A stretch of DNA of 64,000 nucleotides from a phage, in the sequence record PZ386964.1, one strand, 5' to 3'. The position numbers were made by a program, and so were the translations under genes. Positions 3,158 to 48,785 of this stretch are shown one piece after another; the stretch's first letter is position 1; each line of letters begins with the position of its first letter. Below the pieces are notes generated by a model. The model was not told where the DNA came from, did no database searches, and saw only the letters and a list, made by a program, of their open reading frames with translations.

Positions 3158-4132
3158 TTAAAAATACTCCATATCGGTAATATCACGGAAGCATTTATAA
3201 AGCGCAGAGCGCGGCACGTCAACGATGCCAAAGTTAAAGAATTTATACGTCAAGTATTTGTGGCGATAATTTTCGCGATTATCCCAAAGCATCTTCCGCT
3301 CTGCCATAGGCATTGAACCTGCGGACACACGGAAAGGAATCATCTCACCCTTCTCATCTACATACTTTGGATTGACTACGACAAATGATCCGAGATAACC
3401 CTTGGCAACGAGTCCTTCAGCTTCCTTTGATCGTTTTGTGCGACCAAGCTCATCAATGAACGCTTCGTTGTTATTCTCCATCATCTCGACGAAATCTATG
3501 ATCTGTCCTTCTTCGTCGGTCCACGGCTTGTCTTTCCATACATCACGCGACTTCGGCGTTGCGCGACCATGCTTGTATTTGCCCGTCCACGATTTGCCGT
3601 ATAAGCCTTCATATCCAAGCTGGTCCGCTTCGACTTGCATTGCCGCGTATTGATCCATATTCTCAATGTTTCGGTATTCAAGGGCGCGAAGGAATGGTCT
3701 GTGGCCATGGTCCAAGAGATACTGATTGACCTCAGCAACTCTAGCCCGATAGTTCGCATAACGCTTTTCAAAAGGTAAATCGGGGTCGCTGAAGTCATCA
3801 AACACCCACCATGTAAAGTTAGTTATTGCATCAGTATTCATGCACGCAGTATATGCCTGCTGCATGACGTTCTTGTCATTAGGATTGCCGTCGATGAGTT
3901 CACCATCAAGGCCGTAAATCAAATCGCCCAAGAAAAGGAACTCTTTCTTGATTTGAACGTTTCGCAGCGGCATTCCAGACGTACCCATAGGAAGCTTGTC
4001 ATAAGCCATAGCACGTATGCCATCAACCTTAAATGACAATCCGCAAGGTAACGGAACGTCTTCACCGCGTTCGATGATTTGCTTACGTTGACAGCCTTTC
4101 ATTGGCTTAAGCGCTTTGATCTCTCCTGCCAT
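3158..4132 (-). CDS. ATP-dependent DNA ligase
   Basis: Adenylation motif KVDGIR (KxDGxR), LDGELI and EGLYGK motifs typical of ATP-dependent ligases; ATG at 4132 overlaps the stop of the upstream gene. Confidence 0.75.
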   Translation of the reverse strand: MAGEIKALKPMKGCQRKQIIERGEDVPLPCGLSFKVDGIRAMAYDKLPMGTSGMPLRNVQIKKEFLFLGDLIYGLDGELIDGNPNDKNVMQQAYTACMNTDAITNFTWWVFDDFSDPDLPFEKRYANYRARVAEVNQYLLDHGHRPFLRALEYRNIENMDQYAAMQVEADQLGYEGLYGKSWTGKYKHGRATPKSRDVWKDKPWTDEEGQIIDFVEMMENNNEAFIDELGRTKRSKEAEGLVAKGYLGSFVVVNPKYVDEKGEMIPFRVSAGSMPMAERKMLWDNRENYRHKYLTYKFFNFGIVDVPRSALYKCFRDITDMEYF

Positions 4133-32225: not shown

Positions 32226-32299
32226 CTAATAAACGGACGCTGCTTTACGTGTTTTGAATAATGGGATGTGTACAATGGGTCGCTTTATGCGGCCTTTTG

Positions 32300-32530
32300 T
32301 CGTTTTTGTTGGAAATTTTGAAGTGAGTGGCGTGGACCGTGGTGGTTTGAGGCTTGGTTGATACGTATGGAATTTAGGATATTGTGGATGAAAATAATAA
32401 ATAAAATGGAAATTTGTATTTATTTTTGGAGTATGAGCATTTGATTTTGGATTTTAGTGTGCGGATTTTGGAGAGTGAACCGTGGTGTGTGGTGGCGAAA
32501 GCCGCGCCGTGCCTGGATTCTATGGTTGAA
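32300..32530. repeat. Strand-skewed (GT-rich top strand) repeat region upstream of iteron locus A
   Basis: Repeated GGA(A)ATTTTG-like units and two direct copies of (G/A)ACCGTGGTG (32338-32350, 32478-32490), with an inverted copy at 32893-32905; TGTGGATGA at 32383-32391 is one mismatch from a DnaA-box complement. Confidence 0.4.
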
Positions 32531-32539
32531 GAGTACACT

Positions 32540-32812
32540 CTTACGGATAGGTTTTTATCCGTATCATGGCGCTAGGGTGCGCCGCGCCTGGATTTGTACA
32601 CTGAATCTTACGGATGATACGGATGATACGCCATTTTTCCTTATTGTAACCAGAATTATTTCAAAAATTAATTAACTCCATTTTGAATTAATTTAAATTA
32701 ATTTTTTCTACATCCTCATACTTATGTTAATTTATATATTTAACGTATTATCCGTAAGATATAAGTAAAAACAAAGACTTGCGGCAATACGGATGATACG
32801 TCATGATACGCT
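32540..32812. repeat. Iteron locus A: TACGGATGA-type repeats in both orientations flanking a ~100-bp AT-rich core
   Basis: Hairpin TACGGATA-6 nt-TATCCGTA (32542-32563); tandem ACGGATGAT twice (32610-32627); AT-rich 32641-32745 containing AATTAATTTAAATTA; inverted copy TATCCGTA (32749-32756); further TACGGATGATACG (32788-32800). Confidence 0.6.
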
Positions 32813-33024
32813 TCAACCAGCCAACTGCGGCTAAGTCATTGATTTGCATAACAAGCGGCGAAAGGGATGGATTTCTTTTATACGTATCAAACAGTACACC
32901 ACGCACCACGGTCCGTTATCCATTCAGCACTATGATTTGTGTACGTTTATAGCCATAATGAACATCAATCTGCACTTGAATATAATGTCCATCCATTGTA
33001 TAATTCACACTATTAATTTGCACT

Positions 33025-33513
33025 ATGGGATTTTGCACTATGAGTCAAGATTATGTAGCGATGCCTGAAGACTTTGAAGACCCGCGATTTGCAGAGCACA
33101 ATCAGGCTTTATTCGATGAGTTCATTGACCTTGTTATTCAGGGCCATGACATGCGCGCAGCTTTTGCACTAGTATTTGGAATGGAAGTTGCAACGGATAA
33201 CTACACTGGCCAGCGAATCCTTTGCGCGCAACGCAATCCATACTACAAGATGCGCTTCAAAAAGCGTATGGAAGAGATGCCACTCAAGGATTTGTGGAGC
33301 GTAAAAGGTGCAATTCACAATTTGGTCAAGCTTGTGCGTGATCCAGAAGTCGCGGCATCAGCCAAGCTTAATGCTATTCGTGAACTGAATATCATCTACG
33401 GCATCACGATGATTGATGAAAACGGCAATAGTAAAATGGGCCGTTCTATGGACGATTTCTACAAGGATTTTGGAGAGGCGGCCAAAGAAGGTGAGCAATT
33501 CTCCCGCCACTAG
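33025..33513 (+). CDS. Hypothetical protein, possibly DNA-binding; small-terminase-like at low confidence
   Basis: 162-aa ORF whose start codon sits inside the AATTTGCACTAT motif; helical N-terminal region then charged coiled coil; hairpin after the stop. Confidence 0.45.
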   Translation: MGFCTMSQDYVAMPEDFEDPRFAEHNQALFDEFIDLVIQGHDMRAAFALVFGMEVATDNYTGQRILCAQRNPYYKMRFKKRMEEMPLKDLWSVKGAIHNLVKLVRDPEVAASAKLNAIRELNIIYGITMIDENGNSKMGRSMDDFYKDFGEAAKEGEQFSRH

Positions 33514-33627
33514 CCAATTTGCACTATAAAACGGCCCTAGAACACATTTTCTCCACTTCTAGGGCCATCGGTAATACGACGGGGAAGGTTACAACCATAA
33601 ACGCGTTAGAAAGTGTATTATTATAAG

Positions 33628-33891
33628 TCATCTTTTAGTCACTTTCCGTAACAATTTACGACCTTCAACCGTCCAATCGAACGACTCCACCAGCAGATTT
33701 GCACCATAACCCAAGACGATGCGCCCTTTCTCGTTATCGACCCGCCAACAAGTCTCGAATAGCATTCGATTTGCACTATTAACTATTGCCGCAACGCGCG
33801 TTGGGTAAGCGCAATTTGCACTATGGTCATAAAGGGATAAGGTGCGACCACTTCCGATGGACAACGTAGCAATGAGAATAAGCGTATTCAT
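33628..33891 (-). CDS. Hypothetical small protein with hydrophobic N-terminus
   Basis: 87-aa ORF; C-terminal region paralogous to the C-terminus of the 33942-34568 product; carries two copies of the DNA motif (encoding SAN). Confidence 0.4.
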   Translation of the reverse strand: MNTLILIATLSIGSGRTLSLYDHSANCAYPTRVAAIVNSANRMLFETCWRVDNEKGRIVLGYGANLLVESFDWTVEGRKLLRKVTKR

Positions 33892-33941
33892 AAGCCACCA
33901 ATTTGCACTATGAAAAGCGACCCCGAAGGGCCGCCATTCAA

Positions 33942-34568
33942 TTAGATGATTTGGAATGTGTAGGATTTATTACCGAACTCGAAGTTCAAGCGCCCAGCTT
34001 CCTTAAGCTTCATGCGGAAGCGAATATGCTTGCTATCCGGTAGGCCCAGCGCGGCGAACGCTACGCGGACCGATTTGAACTCTCCTACACCCTCGACCAT
34101 AACGCCGTTACGGGTGAGACGCTTTTGCGCCACTTCCTTATTGTCCCAACTTTTTGCAATGCCTTCGCTATTCGAACGGCGATGGGAAGGAGTTCCATTT
34201 TGCACTACGCAATTTGCACTATCGTTTAAACCGCTCTTAACGAAGGCTTCATACTCTTCGTCGGTCATCGCGTCGAGTTCTTCCTGAGTCGGCTCGGCCT
34301 TTTTAACTACCGCACGCGCCTTATGCGTTTTTACATCGCTGGACACTTCCTCGCGCGGCTTCGCGTCGGGGATGGGCGATTCGTTGGACGGCTCATCGAG
34401 CGCGTTTAAGGACTCGATTAACGCGATTACGCGAGTCTCGGCGGTCCGGCGGTCCGCAAACTTCTTAATCGGCTTCGAACCGGAATTTGCATTATAAAAT
34501 GCAACGAGGTCGGCGGTCTTAGTTGCGATAACGTCGCCGCTAGTCGAGAAACGATTTAAGCTAACCAT
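33942..34568 (-). CDS. Hypothetical protein
   Basis: 208-aa ORF with TAGGAG site; C-terminal part (DSANC...WDNKE...NGVMVEGVG) paralogous to the 33628-33891 product. Confidence 0.5.
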   Translation of the reverse strand: MVSLNRFSTSGDVIATKTADLVAFYNANSGSKPIKKFADRRTAETRVIALIESLNALDEPSNESPIPDAKPREEVSSDVKTHKARAVVKKAEPTQEELDAMTDEEYEAFVKSGLNDSANCVVQNGTPSHRRSNSEGIAKSWDNKEVAQKRLTRNGVMVEGVGEFKSVRVAFAALGLPDSKHIRFRMKLKEAGRLNFEFGNKSYTFQII

Positions 34569-34648
34569 AATAAACTCCTATTTGTTAGGGCGCTAGGCGC
34601 GAAAGAATTTTATTAAAGCGCCGCGCACGACGCTCTAAAAATCCTCTC

Positions 34649-34933
34649 TTACGCTTCGACGAGGGAGAAGGTCTCAAATTCTTCTTCGCCCATAACGAGT
34701 AAGATATTACCGATTTCGACCGCTTCGAAGAAGTATCCGTTAACGTTTACTTCGAAGGCTTCGCGGTCCGATTCCGGTAGCGCCGCGTAAAGTTTAAAAG
34801 CCTCGGCGACCGTTACCCCACCCGCCTCGATAGTTTGGTCTACGTTCGCGGCGTAGACTTCGGATAAATTTTGTTTAACGCCGTAGTTCTCGACGATAGC
34901 GTTACGAATAGAAGAAACGTTAAGAATAGCCAT
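34649..34933 (-). CDS. Small acidic protein, paralog A
   Basis: 94 aa, strongly acidic (net about -12); TAGGAG site; paralogous to the 35568-35858 product. Confidence 0.55.
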   Translation of the reverse strand: MAILNVSSIRNAIVENYGVKQNLSEVYAANVDQTIEAGGVTVAEAFKLYAALPESDREAFEVNVNGYFFEAVEIGNILLVMGEEEFETFSLVEA

Positions 34934-35002
34934 TTTAAACTCCTAGTTGGGAGAGGCGTTAACGACCTATTCGTTAACTCATCCCGTCCCGATATGAGTA
35001 CA

Positions 35003-35029
35003 TTATAATATAGTGTAGAAAAAAGTAAA
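35003..35029 (-). promoter_or_regulatory. Possible minus-strand promoter for acidic paralog A (divergent from the 35157 gene promoter)
   Basis: Minus strand: -35 TTTACT (plus 35024-35029) within an inverted copy of the AAAGTGCTTTACT element; -10 TATAAT (plus 35003-35008) at a short 15-bp spacing. Confidence 0.3.
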
Positions 35030-35072
35030 GCACTTTTTCGATAAAAATGAGATAAATTATTTTATCTTTTTC

Positions 35073-35100
35073 TTTACTTCTTCGTACACTCGCATATACT
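35073..35100 (+). promoter_or_regulatory. Sigma70-like promoter for the 35157-35459 gene
   Basis: -35 TTTACT (35073-35078), 16-bp spacer, -10 TATACT (35095-35100); shares TTTACTTCTTCGTACACT with the next promoter. Confidence 0.5.
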
Positions 35101-35156
35101 TGTTTATATCGAGACGGGCGATGTCCCTTCCTTCTACTAGCATCGGGAGCTTTATT

Positions 35157-35459
35157 ATGACTACTTTAATCTCTTCCATCCTTACTTACGACGAAGACCG
35201 CTTAACCGTTCGCTCTCTTATCGCCGCCGTTAACGCGGAACTAGAATCTAGCGCCATTAAGGTCCGCGCGGTCGCCTTCATCGGCCTTTCCTTCGACGAT
35301 ATGAAGTATGCCGAACGTAGCGCTATCCGCTTCGCGAAGACCGACGACGAAGCCGTTACCCTTATCGAGACGGTTACGCCGCGCGGCGAAGCGTTAATTA
35401 TCGTCGAGTATATCGACGTAGAAGGCGATAAGGCTTATAAATATTTTATCGCAGAATAA
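35157..35459 (+). CDS. Small acidic protein, possibly a third member of the same family
   Basis: 100 aa; GGGAG site; promoter TTTACT, 16 bp, TATACT upstream; acidic composition similar to the flanking paralogs. Confidence 0.5.
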   Translation: MTTLISSILTYDEDRLTVRSLIAAVNAELESSAIKVRAVAFIGLSFDDMKYAERSAIRFAKTDDEAVTLIETVTPRGEALIIVEYIDVEGDKAYKYFIAE

Positions 35460-35470
35460 CGAAAAAGTGC

Positions 35471-35499
35471 TTTACTTCTTCGTACACTAAGACTATAAT
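35471..35499 (+). promoter_or_regulatory. Sigma70-like promoter for acidic paralog B
   Basis: -35 TTTACT (35471-35476), 17-bp spacer, -10 TATAAT (35494-35499). Confidence 0.55.
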
Positions 35500-35567
35500 G
35501 TTTTATATCGAGAGGGGGATGAGGTAGCGAATAGGTCGCTACCCTCCCGACCAACTAGGAGATTATT

Positions 35568-35858
35568 ATGATTACTTTAGCCGCTATCCGTAACGCTCGC
35601 GCCGAAACTTCCGAAAACTCTAACGTATTTGGCGAAAAACTTAAAAACGTTTATCTCTTTAACGTAGATGCGACTATCGAGGAGCTTCATAGTCCTATCG
35701 ATTTTAGCGAATTTACGGAACTCGAAGAGGAAGATATTTCTACCTTCCGCGTTACTATCGAAGGCAAGGTTTATTTTGCTACGGAGTTCGGCGGCGAATA
35801 TCTCGCGGTATCCGAAGGCGAAGGCCGTTACTCTTTCTTTAAAATCGTCTCCTTATAA
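35568..35858 (+). CDS. Small acidic protein, paralog B
   Basis: 96 aa; AGGAG site; promoter TTTACT, 17 bp, TATAAT upstream; terminator downstream; N-terminal and FxV...G...F.A.E.G motifs shared with paralog A. Confidence 0.55.
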   Translation: MITLAAIRNARAETSENSNVFGEKLKNVYLFNVDATIEELHSPIDFSEFTELEEEDISTFRVTIEGKVYFATEFGGEYLAVSEGEGRYSFFKIVSL

Positions 35859-35878
35859 TACCCTTCCGTTATTAATAG

Positions 35879-35903
35879 GCCGCGCTTAGTCGCGGCTTTT
35901 CTT
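35879..35903 (+). terminator. Rho-independent terminator after acidic paralog B
   Basis: Hairpin GCCGCG-CTTAGT-CGCGGC followed by TTTTCTT. Confidence 0.6.
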
Positions 35904-35905
35904 CG

Positions 35906-36557
35906 TCCCTATCTCGATGCGCTTCTCCGCGAAAACTCCTTTATCCTTCCCTTCTTCGTCGCATAATCTTCATCGAGATGCGCCTTAGTTCGCATAACAG
36001 GTATTACGTTAAATGGAGAACATCGCGTAAGTCCTTGTTTTATATAGACACCTATATCGGACCGTTAGGGCGGGTCGCGTAAGTCGTTGTTTTATAAAGG
36101 CGCAAAACTTTCCCTTCGTTCCGAACTAAAACGAGAAATATGCCGACCCTTCGCCGGAAAATAGTACGCATGCGAAATTACATGCATCTAGAATAATCCC
36201 CACCGATATTATCCTACACGCAATCATTCGCTTTCGAATCATTATGCTTCATATTATTATGCGTCGAATCATTCGCTTTCGAATTGTAACGCTGGAAACT
36301 GTAACGTCGATTGATTATTGCGTTCGTGTGGTTTTTATGGCATGGGTCTTTTGGTGCGTTTTGCTACTTGATGGAATTTGCAGTACACTAATCAAAATAC
36401 GACACATTTGGTCCACTAACTTTTCAAAGAAAAAGTCCTAGACAGTACCGTACTATTTTGTACCCACAGGAAATTTGCAGTACACTCCTGTGCGGCAGGC
36501 AAAATAAAGGGCCGCACCAAGCGACCCACGATTCACGGTTAAATCAACAAGCACCCA
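35906..36557. repeat. ORF-free, repeat-rich ~650-bp region
   Basis: Direct repeat CGCGTAAGTC(C/G)TTGTTTTATA (36014 and 36076); palindrome ATTCGCTTTCGAAT twice (36225, 36270); AATTTGCAGTACACT twice (about 36366 and 36470); hairpin GTGCGGC-14 nt-GCCGCAC. Confidence 0.5.
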
Positions 36558-36938
36558 CTATTCACTCTTATGGGCATCACCAAAGCCATCCGCAATCTGG
36601 CTGATCAGCGATTCAATGGACACAGTTTTACCAATTGATCGAGCGGTAATAGCAAGCATATTATCAATCAAACCGCGATTGACTTCACATGTTCCAGGCT
36701 TTGATTCATCTCCAGGACAACCAAAAAGCTGGTCGCGCAAACTTTCGAGGGAACGCTCAATATTTTCCAGCTTCTCTTCTAAATCGGATTGGCGACGTAA
36801 AACCCATGTTAAGTCGCGGTTGCCGACTTCCAATCCATTATAATCGCAAGATGGAACGTCAATTTTGATACTGGAACCAAAAGCAGTACCGCTGCCTTTA
36901 GTATATGTGTGGCTAATAGAATCATTTTTATTTGACAT
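36558..36938 (-). CDS. Hypothetical protein with coiled-coil segment
   Basis: Internal ATG (MSNKNDSISHTY...) with AAAGG site; last gene of the minus-strand block. Confidence 0.45.
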   Translation of the reverse strand: MSNKNDSISHTYTKGSGTAFGSSIKIDVPSCDYNGLEVGNRDLTWVLRRQSDLEEKLENIERSLESLRDQLFGCPGDESKPGTCEVNRGLIDNMLAITARSIGKTVSIESLISQIADGFGDAHKSE

Positions 36939-48421: not shown

Positions 48422-48461
48422 ATCGCCTGGCAATGGATTGCCGCAGGATTTTACGCGTATA

Positions 48462-48723
48462 ATGACGTATCATCCGTATCAAGTAAGTAGTTGTTTTCGA
48501 AAGAATCTTACGGGTGATACGGATGATACGCGTTGCCGCGATACTTTATAGGAATTCAAATAAATTAATTTAAAATTATATATCTAATTTAATTTTATTT
48601 TTTTATAAACTCTTATATATGAAAAGTATCCGTATCATCCGTATCATCCGTAGCACACCAGTGATAGCGCGGCTTATACACCGATACGGATAAAAATACG
48701 CCTCATTTTATCCGTATCATCCG
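48462..48723. repeat. Iteron locus B: long inverted repeat of GATACGGATGATACG-type units around an AT-rich core, plus a 13-bp-arm hairpin
   Basis: Left arm CTTACGGGTGATACGGATGATACGCG (48506-48532); AT-rich 48533-48618 containing AATTAATTTAAAATTA; right arm GTATCCGTATCATCCGTATCATCCGTAGC (48618-48646); hairpin GATACGGATAAAA-10 nt-TTTTATCCGTATC (48675-48710). Confidence 0.6.
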
Positions 48724-48785
48724 TATCACACTAATTAAGTCGCGGCTATATCGGTTGTTATACATATTCAAACCATAATTATTGT

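Follow-up and report, generated by a model that had tools for sequence, protein, structure and literature searches.

Positions 35906-36557 of the phage sequence PZ386964.1 (the whole 64,000-nt stretch analyzed is referred to here as the window) separate two convergent genes, at 35568..35858 on the plus strand and 36558..36938 on the minus strand. We are highly confident that this stretch is the junction of a 3.67-kb direct terminal repeat (DTR) with unique DNA in a Wifcevirus genome. It consists of the final 446 bp of the DTR and the initial 206 bp of unique DNA, and the window carries the DTR as a single copy, joined as in a circular assembly. An earlier, sequence-only reading had described the stretch as free of open reading frames (ORFs) and dense in repeats, palindromes, and hairpins, and had suggested small RNAs, a regulatory hub, or a recombination or replication site as its function. 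All of the elements that it named were found where it had placed them. The stretch is real and functional and is best described as a terminal-repeat junction, not as a small-RNA locus. Terminal-repeat boundaries are an already known kind of element, and this one is annotated in one GenBank record.

A region of ~1.7 kb that includes the stretch was 95.5% identical to the Escherichia phages HermannAdler (Bas98) and vB_EcoM_WFC and matched 29 phage records, every one from the genus Wifcevirus. The stretch itself was found only in these 29 records, at 90-97.6% identity. No homologs outside the genus were detected at blastn sensitivity, scans of IMG/VR and metagenomes retrieved near-identical relatives only, and no similarity to host DNA was found among 5,426 E. 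coli genomes. The kaset record gives the family as Lindbergviridae; the genus comprises 66-72-kb myoviruses that are distant kin of the Pseudomonas genus Pbunavirus (PMC11990801).

The DTR ends were mapped using the record of Mansfield, which carries a PhageTerm annotation, and those of WFH, SP13, Ro157lw, and WFC, which contain DTR copies at both ends; the two copies were compared within each record. The PhageTerm-predicted DTR in the Mansfield record is 3,673 bp, the same size as in one publication (PMC6753283); another gives "about 3.7 kb" (PMC6563267). The left genome end, common to the relatives, falls at 32679/32680 of the window, between AATTAACTCC and ATTTTGAATT. The right DTR end falls at 36351/36352, between GGGTCTTT and TGGTGCG (in longer context, between CATGGGTCTTT and TGGTGCGTTTTG). 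The right-end sequence is identical in four of the five records (Mansfield, WFH, SP13, and Ro157lw) despite DTR lengths of 3533-3899 bp, and the window has the same sequence. In these four close relatives, the right physical end of the packaged DNA lies inside the stretch. The boundary features are as follows.

32680..36351, no strand: DTR, 3672 bp, with ends placed by sequence identity to the relatives' records
35906..36351, no strand: non-coding end segment of the DTR, with no conserved ORF and no codon-position bias; end mapped in relatives
36282..36363, no strand: putative cut-site block, nearly invariant, around 36351/36352, with A(A/C)TGTAACG at 36282 and 36297
36432/36433, no strand: alternative DTR end, in the WFC record only, between CAAAGAAA and AAGTCC and between the two copies of the D3 repeat described below

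The 446 bp of DTR at 35906..36351 also form the extreme right end of the virion DNA. Within the putative cut-site block, the invariant runs are 36282-36306, 36310-36337, and 36349-36363. The left DTR boundary (32679/32680) also lies inside ~800 bp of non-coding DNA (32230-33024). There, the part inside the DTR is nearly invariant, and the part outside it is variable among relatives except for repeated GCCGCGCC..CCTGGATT..GTACAC..CTTACGG units.

The stretch is non-coding and better conserved than the adjacent genes, as judged from an alignment of 19 Wifcevirus genomes. It holds eight ORFs of 31-65 aa, which are intact in 3-18 of the 19 genomes; none is intact in all 19, and none shows an excess of variable sites at the third codon position (e.g., 5/2/6, 4/6/5, and 14/14/8 by codon position). 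Such an excess is present in the flanking genes (32/26/59 and 52/51/79). Intactness and codon-position pattern together ruled out the small ORFs, among them those that the Mansfield and kaset records annotate. Within the stretch, nucleotide diversity is 0.013-0.07; it is 0.10-0.23 in the upstream gene, whose protein has only ~60% identity to that of most relatives, and the downstream gene has 0.07-0.16. Invariant columns make up 75% of the stretch versus 52-60% of the two flanking genes, and by block they reach 91% (36001-36150), 92% (36301-36351), and 86% (36352-36500), with 48% at 36151-36300. Because the stretch is more highly conserved than the genes that flank it, we conclude that this DNA is under constraint, most strongly at the cut site and at the D2 and D3 repeats. 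The sequence-only reading was therefore right that the stretch lacks genes and that so much non-coding DNA is kept for a reason. An extra gene of 69 aa, labeled "transcriptional regulator" in RefSeq and not present in this window, lies between the 96-aa gene and an invariant terminator (window position 35859) in 5 of the 19 genomes (SP13, Ro157lw, ECML-117, FEC19, and Eco4M-7).

Direct repeats are as dense as had been claimed. The longest exact repeat is 18 nt, and 19 10-mers are repeated; each of these values was reached by 0/1000 dinucleotide shuffles, and the stretch ranks third of 195 window tiles in repeated 10-mers. The named palindromes are present, but inverted repeats are no more frequent than expected by chance, with the observed value reached in 24% of shuffles. 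The repeats, termed D1, D2, and D3, are located as follows.

36023..36047, plus strand: D2 copy 1, core CGTAAGTCCTTGTTTTAT at 36026-36043, kept in 19/19 genomes
36075..36099, plus strand: D2 copy 2, core CGTAAGTCGTTGTTTTAT at 36078-36095, 52 nt past copy 1
32766..32783, minus strand: D2 core copy 3, CGCAAGTCTTTGTTTTTA, inverted, 87-104 nt inside the left DTR end
36206..36293, plus strand: D1, two 43-nt units, 74% identical, each with the imperfect palindrome ATTCGCTTTCGAAT
36375..36389, plus strand: D3 copy 1, AATTTGCAGTACACT, beginning 24 nt right of the cut, core AATTTGCNGTACACT kept in 19/19 genomes
36472..36486, plus strand: D3 copy 2, AATTTGCAGTACACT, beginning 121 nt right of the cut, 15/15 identical to copy 1

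The repeat CGCGTAAGTC(C/G)TTGTTTTATA, at 36024-36044 and 36076-36096, is part of the 25-nt D2 unit, whose two copies are identical at 23/25 positions and spaced by 52 nt. Copy 1 falls in the most invariant block, 36001-36150. The third core copy shows no variation among the three distinct relatives in the alignment at that position (WFC, SP13, and Ro157lw), and the core motif CGYAAGTCNTTGTTTT faces outward at both DTR edges. This outward-facing arrangement appears suggestive; its statistical support is weak because the consensus CGYAAGTCNTTGTTTT was derived from its own three copies. D1 is the least conserved block. Its palindrome ATTCGCTTTCGAAT (at 36226 and 36271, with 5-nt arms about CTTT) is often broken in relatives, and Bas100 is without one 45-nt unit.

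D3 copy 2 lies in the loop of a 7-bp stem in the window that relatives do not retain. The idea that each AATTTGCAGTACACT copy is framed by its own stem was rejected, as TTGAT/ATCAA is too weak to fold and CACAGGA/TCCTGTG is broken in most relatives. GTACACT, which forms the 3' part of D3, recurs immediately outside the left DTR end in two repeats (32533 and 32596). It is also found in the spacers of two early promoters that are paralogs of each other (-35 hexamers at 35073 and 35471). These promoters belong to a family of three members with the -35 hexamer TTTACT, located at 35002-35100 and 35471-35499 and including one divergent pair (35029-35002 on the minus strand and 35073-35100 on the plus strand). 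The two paralogous members share CTTTACTTCTTCGTACACT and, downstream, GTTTATATCGAGA.

D3 is a variant member of a same-strand family of 12-mers, AATTTGCACTAT, and the repeats of the stretch come from families confined to the DTR and its edges. With at most two mismatches, AATTTGCACTAT has 17 matches in the window, 13 of them on the plus strand between 33002 and 36483; with at most one mismatch there are eight, versus ~0.3 expected by our own calculation. The two D3 variants are the sole family members outside the DTR. The positions of the copies are conserved in five relatives, and no copy was found in 4.8 kb of Bas98 covering the part of the genome absent from the window. Because several copies lie antisense within minus-strand genes, their shared orientation does not derive from transcription. 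The copies inside the DTR and the gene with which some of them overlap are given below.

33002..34495, plus strand: eleven AATTTGCACTAT copies with at most two mismatches, in the left-central DTR
33040..33513, plus strand: gene for the small terminase subunit (TerS), beginning 360 nt inside the left DTR end

Three tandem copies, at 33002, 33015, and 33030 (13-15 nt spacing), lie directly 3' of a TTGAAT-17-TATAAT promoter and over the terS start codon. The gene product matched the small terminase decamer of Pbunavirus E217 (PDB 7UXE; E = 6e-34; 41% identity to E217 TerS), and its ortholog is annotated as terminase small subunit in the Mansfield record. A Salmonella relative with a TerS homolog has a different layout. 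In a Pbunavirus that has a homologous TerS but was reported to be a headful packager without a DTR (PMC12390725), no comparable repeated motif was found around terS, a contrast that speaks for the genome-end role proposed below. TerS was the only DTR gene product identified, via the PDB; Pfam, PHROGs, and NCBIfam returned no function for any DTR gene. For a 208-aa DTR protein, a PDB sequence search found nothing significant, and its single-sequence AlphaFold model was too poor for use (pLDDT 40).

Conserved convergent terminators are predicted to close the stretch to transcription on both sides. Both predicted hairpins have the features of intrinsic terminators, namely, a GC-rich stem, a U run, a position at the end of a transcription unit, and retention in relatives.

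35877..35898, plus strand: predicted intrinsic terminator, 8-bp GC-rich stem and T run, -12.7 kcal/mol, identical in 19/19 genomes
36509..36527, minus strand: predicted intrinsic terminator, -14.0 kcal/mol, stem in 19/19 genomes, loop variable

The plus-strand terminator, just left of the stretch, would end the rightward early genes of the DTR, and the minus-strand terminator, inside the stretch, would end the leftward genes coming from the unique region. The latter (36527-36509) is 87% identical to a plus-strand terminator at 32277-32295, which is oriented toward the DTR at its left end. As similar terminators face the DTR from both sides, transcription of the unique genome is predicted to stop before either edge. 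Just past the minus-strand terminator is a heptad, ACCCACG (36528-36545), that occurs in ~7 tandem copies in Mansfield (about 3860-3910) and varies in copy number elsewhere.

Beyond the terminators, no conserved RNA structure was found. Rfam returned 0 matches for the stretch at E values up to 1, and tRNA and tmRNA scans found none. In single-sequence sliding folding, z-scores outside the terminators were unremarkable, save for window-specific hairpins that relatives do not keep. RNAalifold analysis of the 19 genomes with column-shuffle controls gave z-scores of -1.4 to +1.1 in the central windows, with no consensus structure, and just -1.5 to -2.6 at the terminators. The hairpins at 36143-36187 are altered or lost in relatives, that at 36166-36187 being rebuilt differently in 11 of the 19 genomes. 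The several stable hairpins noted earlier thus comprise two conserved intrinsic terminators and internal hairpins that are not conserved. Matches to sigma-70 promoters in the stretch are weak (9 of 12 positions), and seven were found versus 4.7 +/- 2.4 in shuffles; each D1 unit contains one such match on the minus strand. Inspection and a promoter scan found no acceptable -35/-10 pair at legal spacing in D2 or D3, and these were rejected as sigma-70 promoters.

The DTR next to the stretch has an unusual composition. From ~34400 to 36100 (with tails from ~33650 and to 36300), CA/TG dinucleotides number 0-6 per 100 nt versus 14.2 window-wide, and 500-nt tiles fall as far as 4.8 standard deviations below the mean. 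Symmetrized observed/expected ratios at 34000-36325 are 0.38 for CA/TG, 1.99 for CG, and 1.18 for TA, versus 1.18, 1.10, and 0.66 in the rest of the window. Only 2 CAG/CTG trinucleotides were found in this zone versus 57 expected, and its three small proteins (94, 100, and 96 aa) are nearly without Gln, His, Cys, Trp, and internal Met. The stretch reaches into the tail of this zone with its left 300 nt, and its unique part lies outside. All relatives show the depletion, even where the allele of the 96-aa gene is divergent, and it is also seen in the extra gene of 5 of the 19 relatives; its right edge tracks the DTR end in the five genomes profiled across the DTR. Because it persists in divergent alleles and in the extra gene, and because its edge follows the DTR end, we conclude that the depletion is selected at the DNA level. 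One possible reading is that DNA entering the cell first avoids sequences targeted by nucleases or restriction enzymes.

Taken together, the position, conservation, and repeat content of the stretch point to cis-acting DNA for genome-end formation at the DTR/unique junction, which we regard as its probable role. That the repeated motifs themselves take part in forming the ends is a more tentative proposal, to which we give somewhat less than even weight. The stretch would act as DNA and not via a product, with signals by which the packaging machinery would recognize the position of the right-end cut and how far the terminal repeat is to be duplicated. The co-oriented AATTTGCACTAT copies are putative protein-binding sites, for which decameric TerS or another DTR-encoded protein is a candidate. 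Under this model, the repeat would be marked by the eleven AATTTGCACTAT sites, three of which lie at the terS start, and its end by the two variants located 24 and 121 nt past the cut; the nearly invariant block at 36282-36363 would be the cut site proper. Packaging probably begins near terS, at the left end. If so, we infer that the stretch would be packaged last and therefore ejected first, so that a second role, as a non-coding leader of the CA/TG-poor segment at the entering end, would be possible.

Comparable arrangements exist in well-studied phages; the closest, Repeat Region 3 of T5, is described below and is a precedent for the proposed role. The concatemer junction of T7 and T3 is cis-acting DNA at a terminal repeat, with flanking short repeats, where terminase makes sequence-specific cuts and the repeat is duplicated. 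The present junction is similar in that it places cis DNA and flanking short repeats beside a DTR, with a possible non-coding leader of a few hundred bases ahead of early promoters at the entering end. The DTR described here is 3.7 kb long and carries genes, including terS, whereas that of T7 measures 160 bp and is processed with the involvement of T7 RNA polymerase; no phage RNA polymerase is known to us from Wifcevirus or Pbunavirus. The junction has no sequence similarity with T7 or T3. In lambda cosB (the R sites) and SPP1 (the pacL and pacR boxes), short repeated motifs near or in the small-terminase gene position terminase. The three tandem 12-mers at the terS start and the two variants 24-121 nt from the right cut are candidate counterparts of these sites. 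In contrast to those systems, in which one compact cluster of ~100-200 bp lies by a single cut, 13 copies are spread here over 3.5 kb on one strand, and TerS binding is only putative.

Several observations weigh against a role of the stretch and its motifs in genome-end formation. E217 TerS, the homolog of the protein encoded here, showed no appreciable DNA binding in vitro (PMC9611059). No AATTTGCACTAT copy lies within 320 nt of the left cut, the nearest being 323 nt away, and the family does not obviously account for formation of the left end. An operator bound by a regulator would account equally well for the tandem copies on the terS promoter. No clear sequence is common to the left and right cut sites, which share short insignificant matches only; one of these, in which GGAATTTGCAGTACACTAATC resembles (G)GATTTGTACACTGAATC, 84 nt to the left of the left end, is suggestive only. 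Both ends were placed from relatives' records and not from reads of the window's own phage, and the WFC record puts the right end 81 nt farther right than the four other relatives do, which is either a true strain difference or a mapping difference. Finally, recombination sweeps in a mosaic region could account in part for the high conservation.

Other explanations were weighed against the same evidence. The closest analog is Repeat Region 3 in the left terminal repeat of T5, a set of conserved untranslated repeats and palindromes that lies mostly in the repeat, extends 270 bp into unique DNA, and is a candidate injection stop signal, iss (bioRxiv 10.1101/866236). Like that region, the stretch is untranslated, has dense direct repeats along with inverted repeats and palindromes, lies mostly inside the repeat with an overrun of ~200-270 bp across the inner boundary (206 bp here), and is conserved far above the ORFs of the terminal repeat. 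An entry-control element is thus conceivable, in which the DTR or its right part enters first and the stretch serves as a leader, anchor, or pause signal for DNA transfer. The adjoining 1.7-2 kb of the DTR would suit such a scheme, with three sigma-70-type promoters (TTTACT -35; 9-10 of 12), small genes, and a near absence of CA/TG in all relatives, and in T5-like phages and Autographiviridae, sensitivity to restriction is known to lie in the DNA that enters first (PMC10644984, PMC12455610). However, two-step DNA transfer has been proven for T5, a siphovirus, and the T5 region spans 1.2 kb of a 10-kb repeat and contains paired DnaA boxes, the proposed actors in T5. No consensus DnaA boxes (TTWTNCACA and near variants) occur at 13723-50136, and the whole window contains 4 versus 7.6 expected. 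Wifcevirus is a genus of myophages for which two-step transfer has never been reported; if the right end enters first, moreover, the stretch would lead the DNA and not occupy a stop position. The repeats here also differ from those of T5 in belonging to a one-strand family across the whole DTR. As it has no DnaA boxes and no sequence similarity to T5-like phages, and two-step transfer is not known in Wifcevirus, the stretch is not a member of the T5 family, and we consider entry control unlikely as its primary function. A transcriptional buffer between the convergent units, whose repeats bind regulators of the early DTR genes, is likewise improbable. The conserved terminators on both sides, the GTACACT motifs in the spacers of the early promoters at 35073 and 35471, and the operator-like AATTTGCACTAT copies over the -10 element, start site, and 5' untranslated region of terS all fit an insulator and operator cluster, and a regulatory hub, as suggested earlier, is conceivable; related motifs are also found on early promoters inside the DTR. 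D2 and D3 themselves are hundreds of bases from any credible promoter, the matches in the stretch being 9 of 12 and no commoner than in shuffles. Binding of a regulator would explain neither the placement of all motif copies on a single strand, including antisense in minus-strand genes, nor the position of two variants just beyond the DTR end.

The small RNAs suggested earlier are very unlikely. One candidate is a ~75-nt leftward transcript running from promoter-like sites in D1 to hairpins and a U-rich tract at ~36190-36125. The D1 units contain two minus-strand sites of the form TCGAAA-18-(G/A)ATAAT, with the -10 element, by our reading, retained in most relatives, and the hairpins downstream are followed by U-rich runs (z = -2.7 in the window). 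These sites match at only 9 of 12 positions, and the block that contains them is the least conserved part of the stretch, while the best-conserved blocks (D2, the cut site, and D3) are without a promoter. The lack of an Rfam match, the differently rebuilt hairpin at 36166-36187, and alignment windows that, terminators excepted, fold no better than column shuffles also argue against a conserved RNA. Of the functions proposed by the sequence-only reading, a recombination or replication site comes closest, given that the stretch straddles the right DTR boundary, a position that the reading did not recognize. A replication origin in the strict sense, with the co-oriented 12-mers as iterons for a phage initiator and the junction copies as outlying control sites, is nevertheless the least plausible of the alternatives. 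The repeats are direct, on one strand, and partly tandem at 13-15 nt spacing, and some copies lie within coding sequence, as do the lambda iterons, which sit inside gene O. Against an origin stand the lack of DnaA boxes and of an AT-rich unwinding region in the stretch (G+C of 0.39-0.46), a GC skew that tracks gene direction only, the scatter of unclustered copies over 1.5 kb plus two outliers, and the lack of an initiator gene among the DTR genes in the searches described above.

Genome-end formation remains the reading that we prefer, and a more specific version of it can be envisaged. The one-strand AATTTGCACTAT family and its two boundary variants could form a polar "end-of-repeat" code for a moving machine, such as the terminase motor or a repeat-duplicating polymerase, and together with the CA/TG-poor module could define a protected first-entering segment. 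We view this version as speculative and doubtful. If true, the polar code would be a new type of packaging-termination signal for phages with long terminal repeats, and the CA/TG-poor early module, as a protected first-entering segment, would imply T5-like staged infection in a myovirus. In our assessment, how edges are recognized and cut and how kilobases are duplicated in long-DTR phages is poorly understood except in T7. The junction supplies short, conserved, and mutable candidate signals, namely, the putative cut-site block, the two boundary variants of the polar motif, and the outward-facing CGYAAGTCNTTGTTTT at both edges. The literature search for the motif strings found nothing relevant, and no description of the motif families or of the CA/TG-poor module was found in the literature searched. 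The candidate signals are present in E. coli phages, Bas98-101, for which K-12 derivatives now serve as hosts (PMC11990801). The junction also accounts for a ~700-bp gap that is left blank, or filled with doubtful ORFs of 30-40 aa, in 29 database records.

Two further repeat features were observed in the window. The 7-mer ATTTGCA changes strand at the genome end, with 6/6 copies left of 32000 on the minus strand and 14/14 copies right of 32800 on the plus strand; this switch may be a coincidence, as the count outside the DTR is as chance predicts. A second non-coding repeat hub at 48450-48750, also represented at 32540-32631, consists of GATACGGAT(GATACG) units in both orientations, with seven copies of the 9-mer, and could be an iteron or regulator site.

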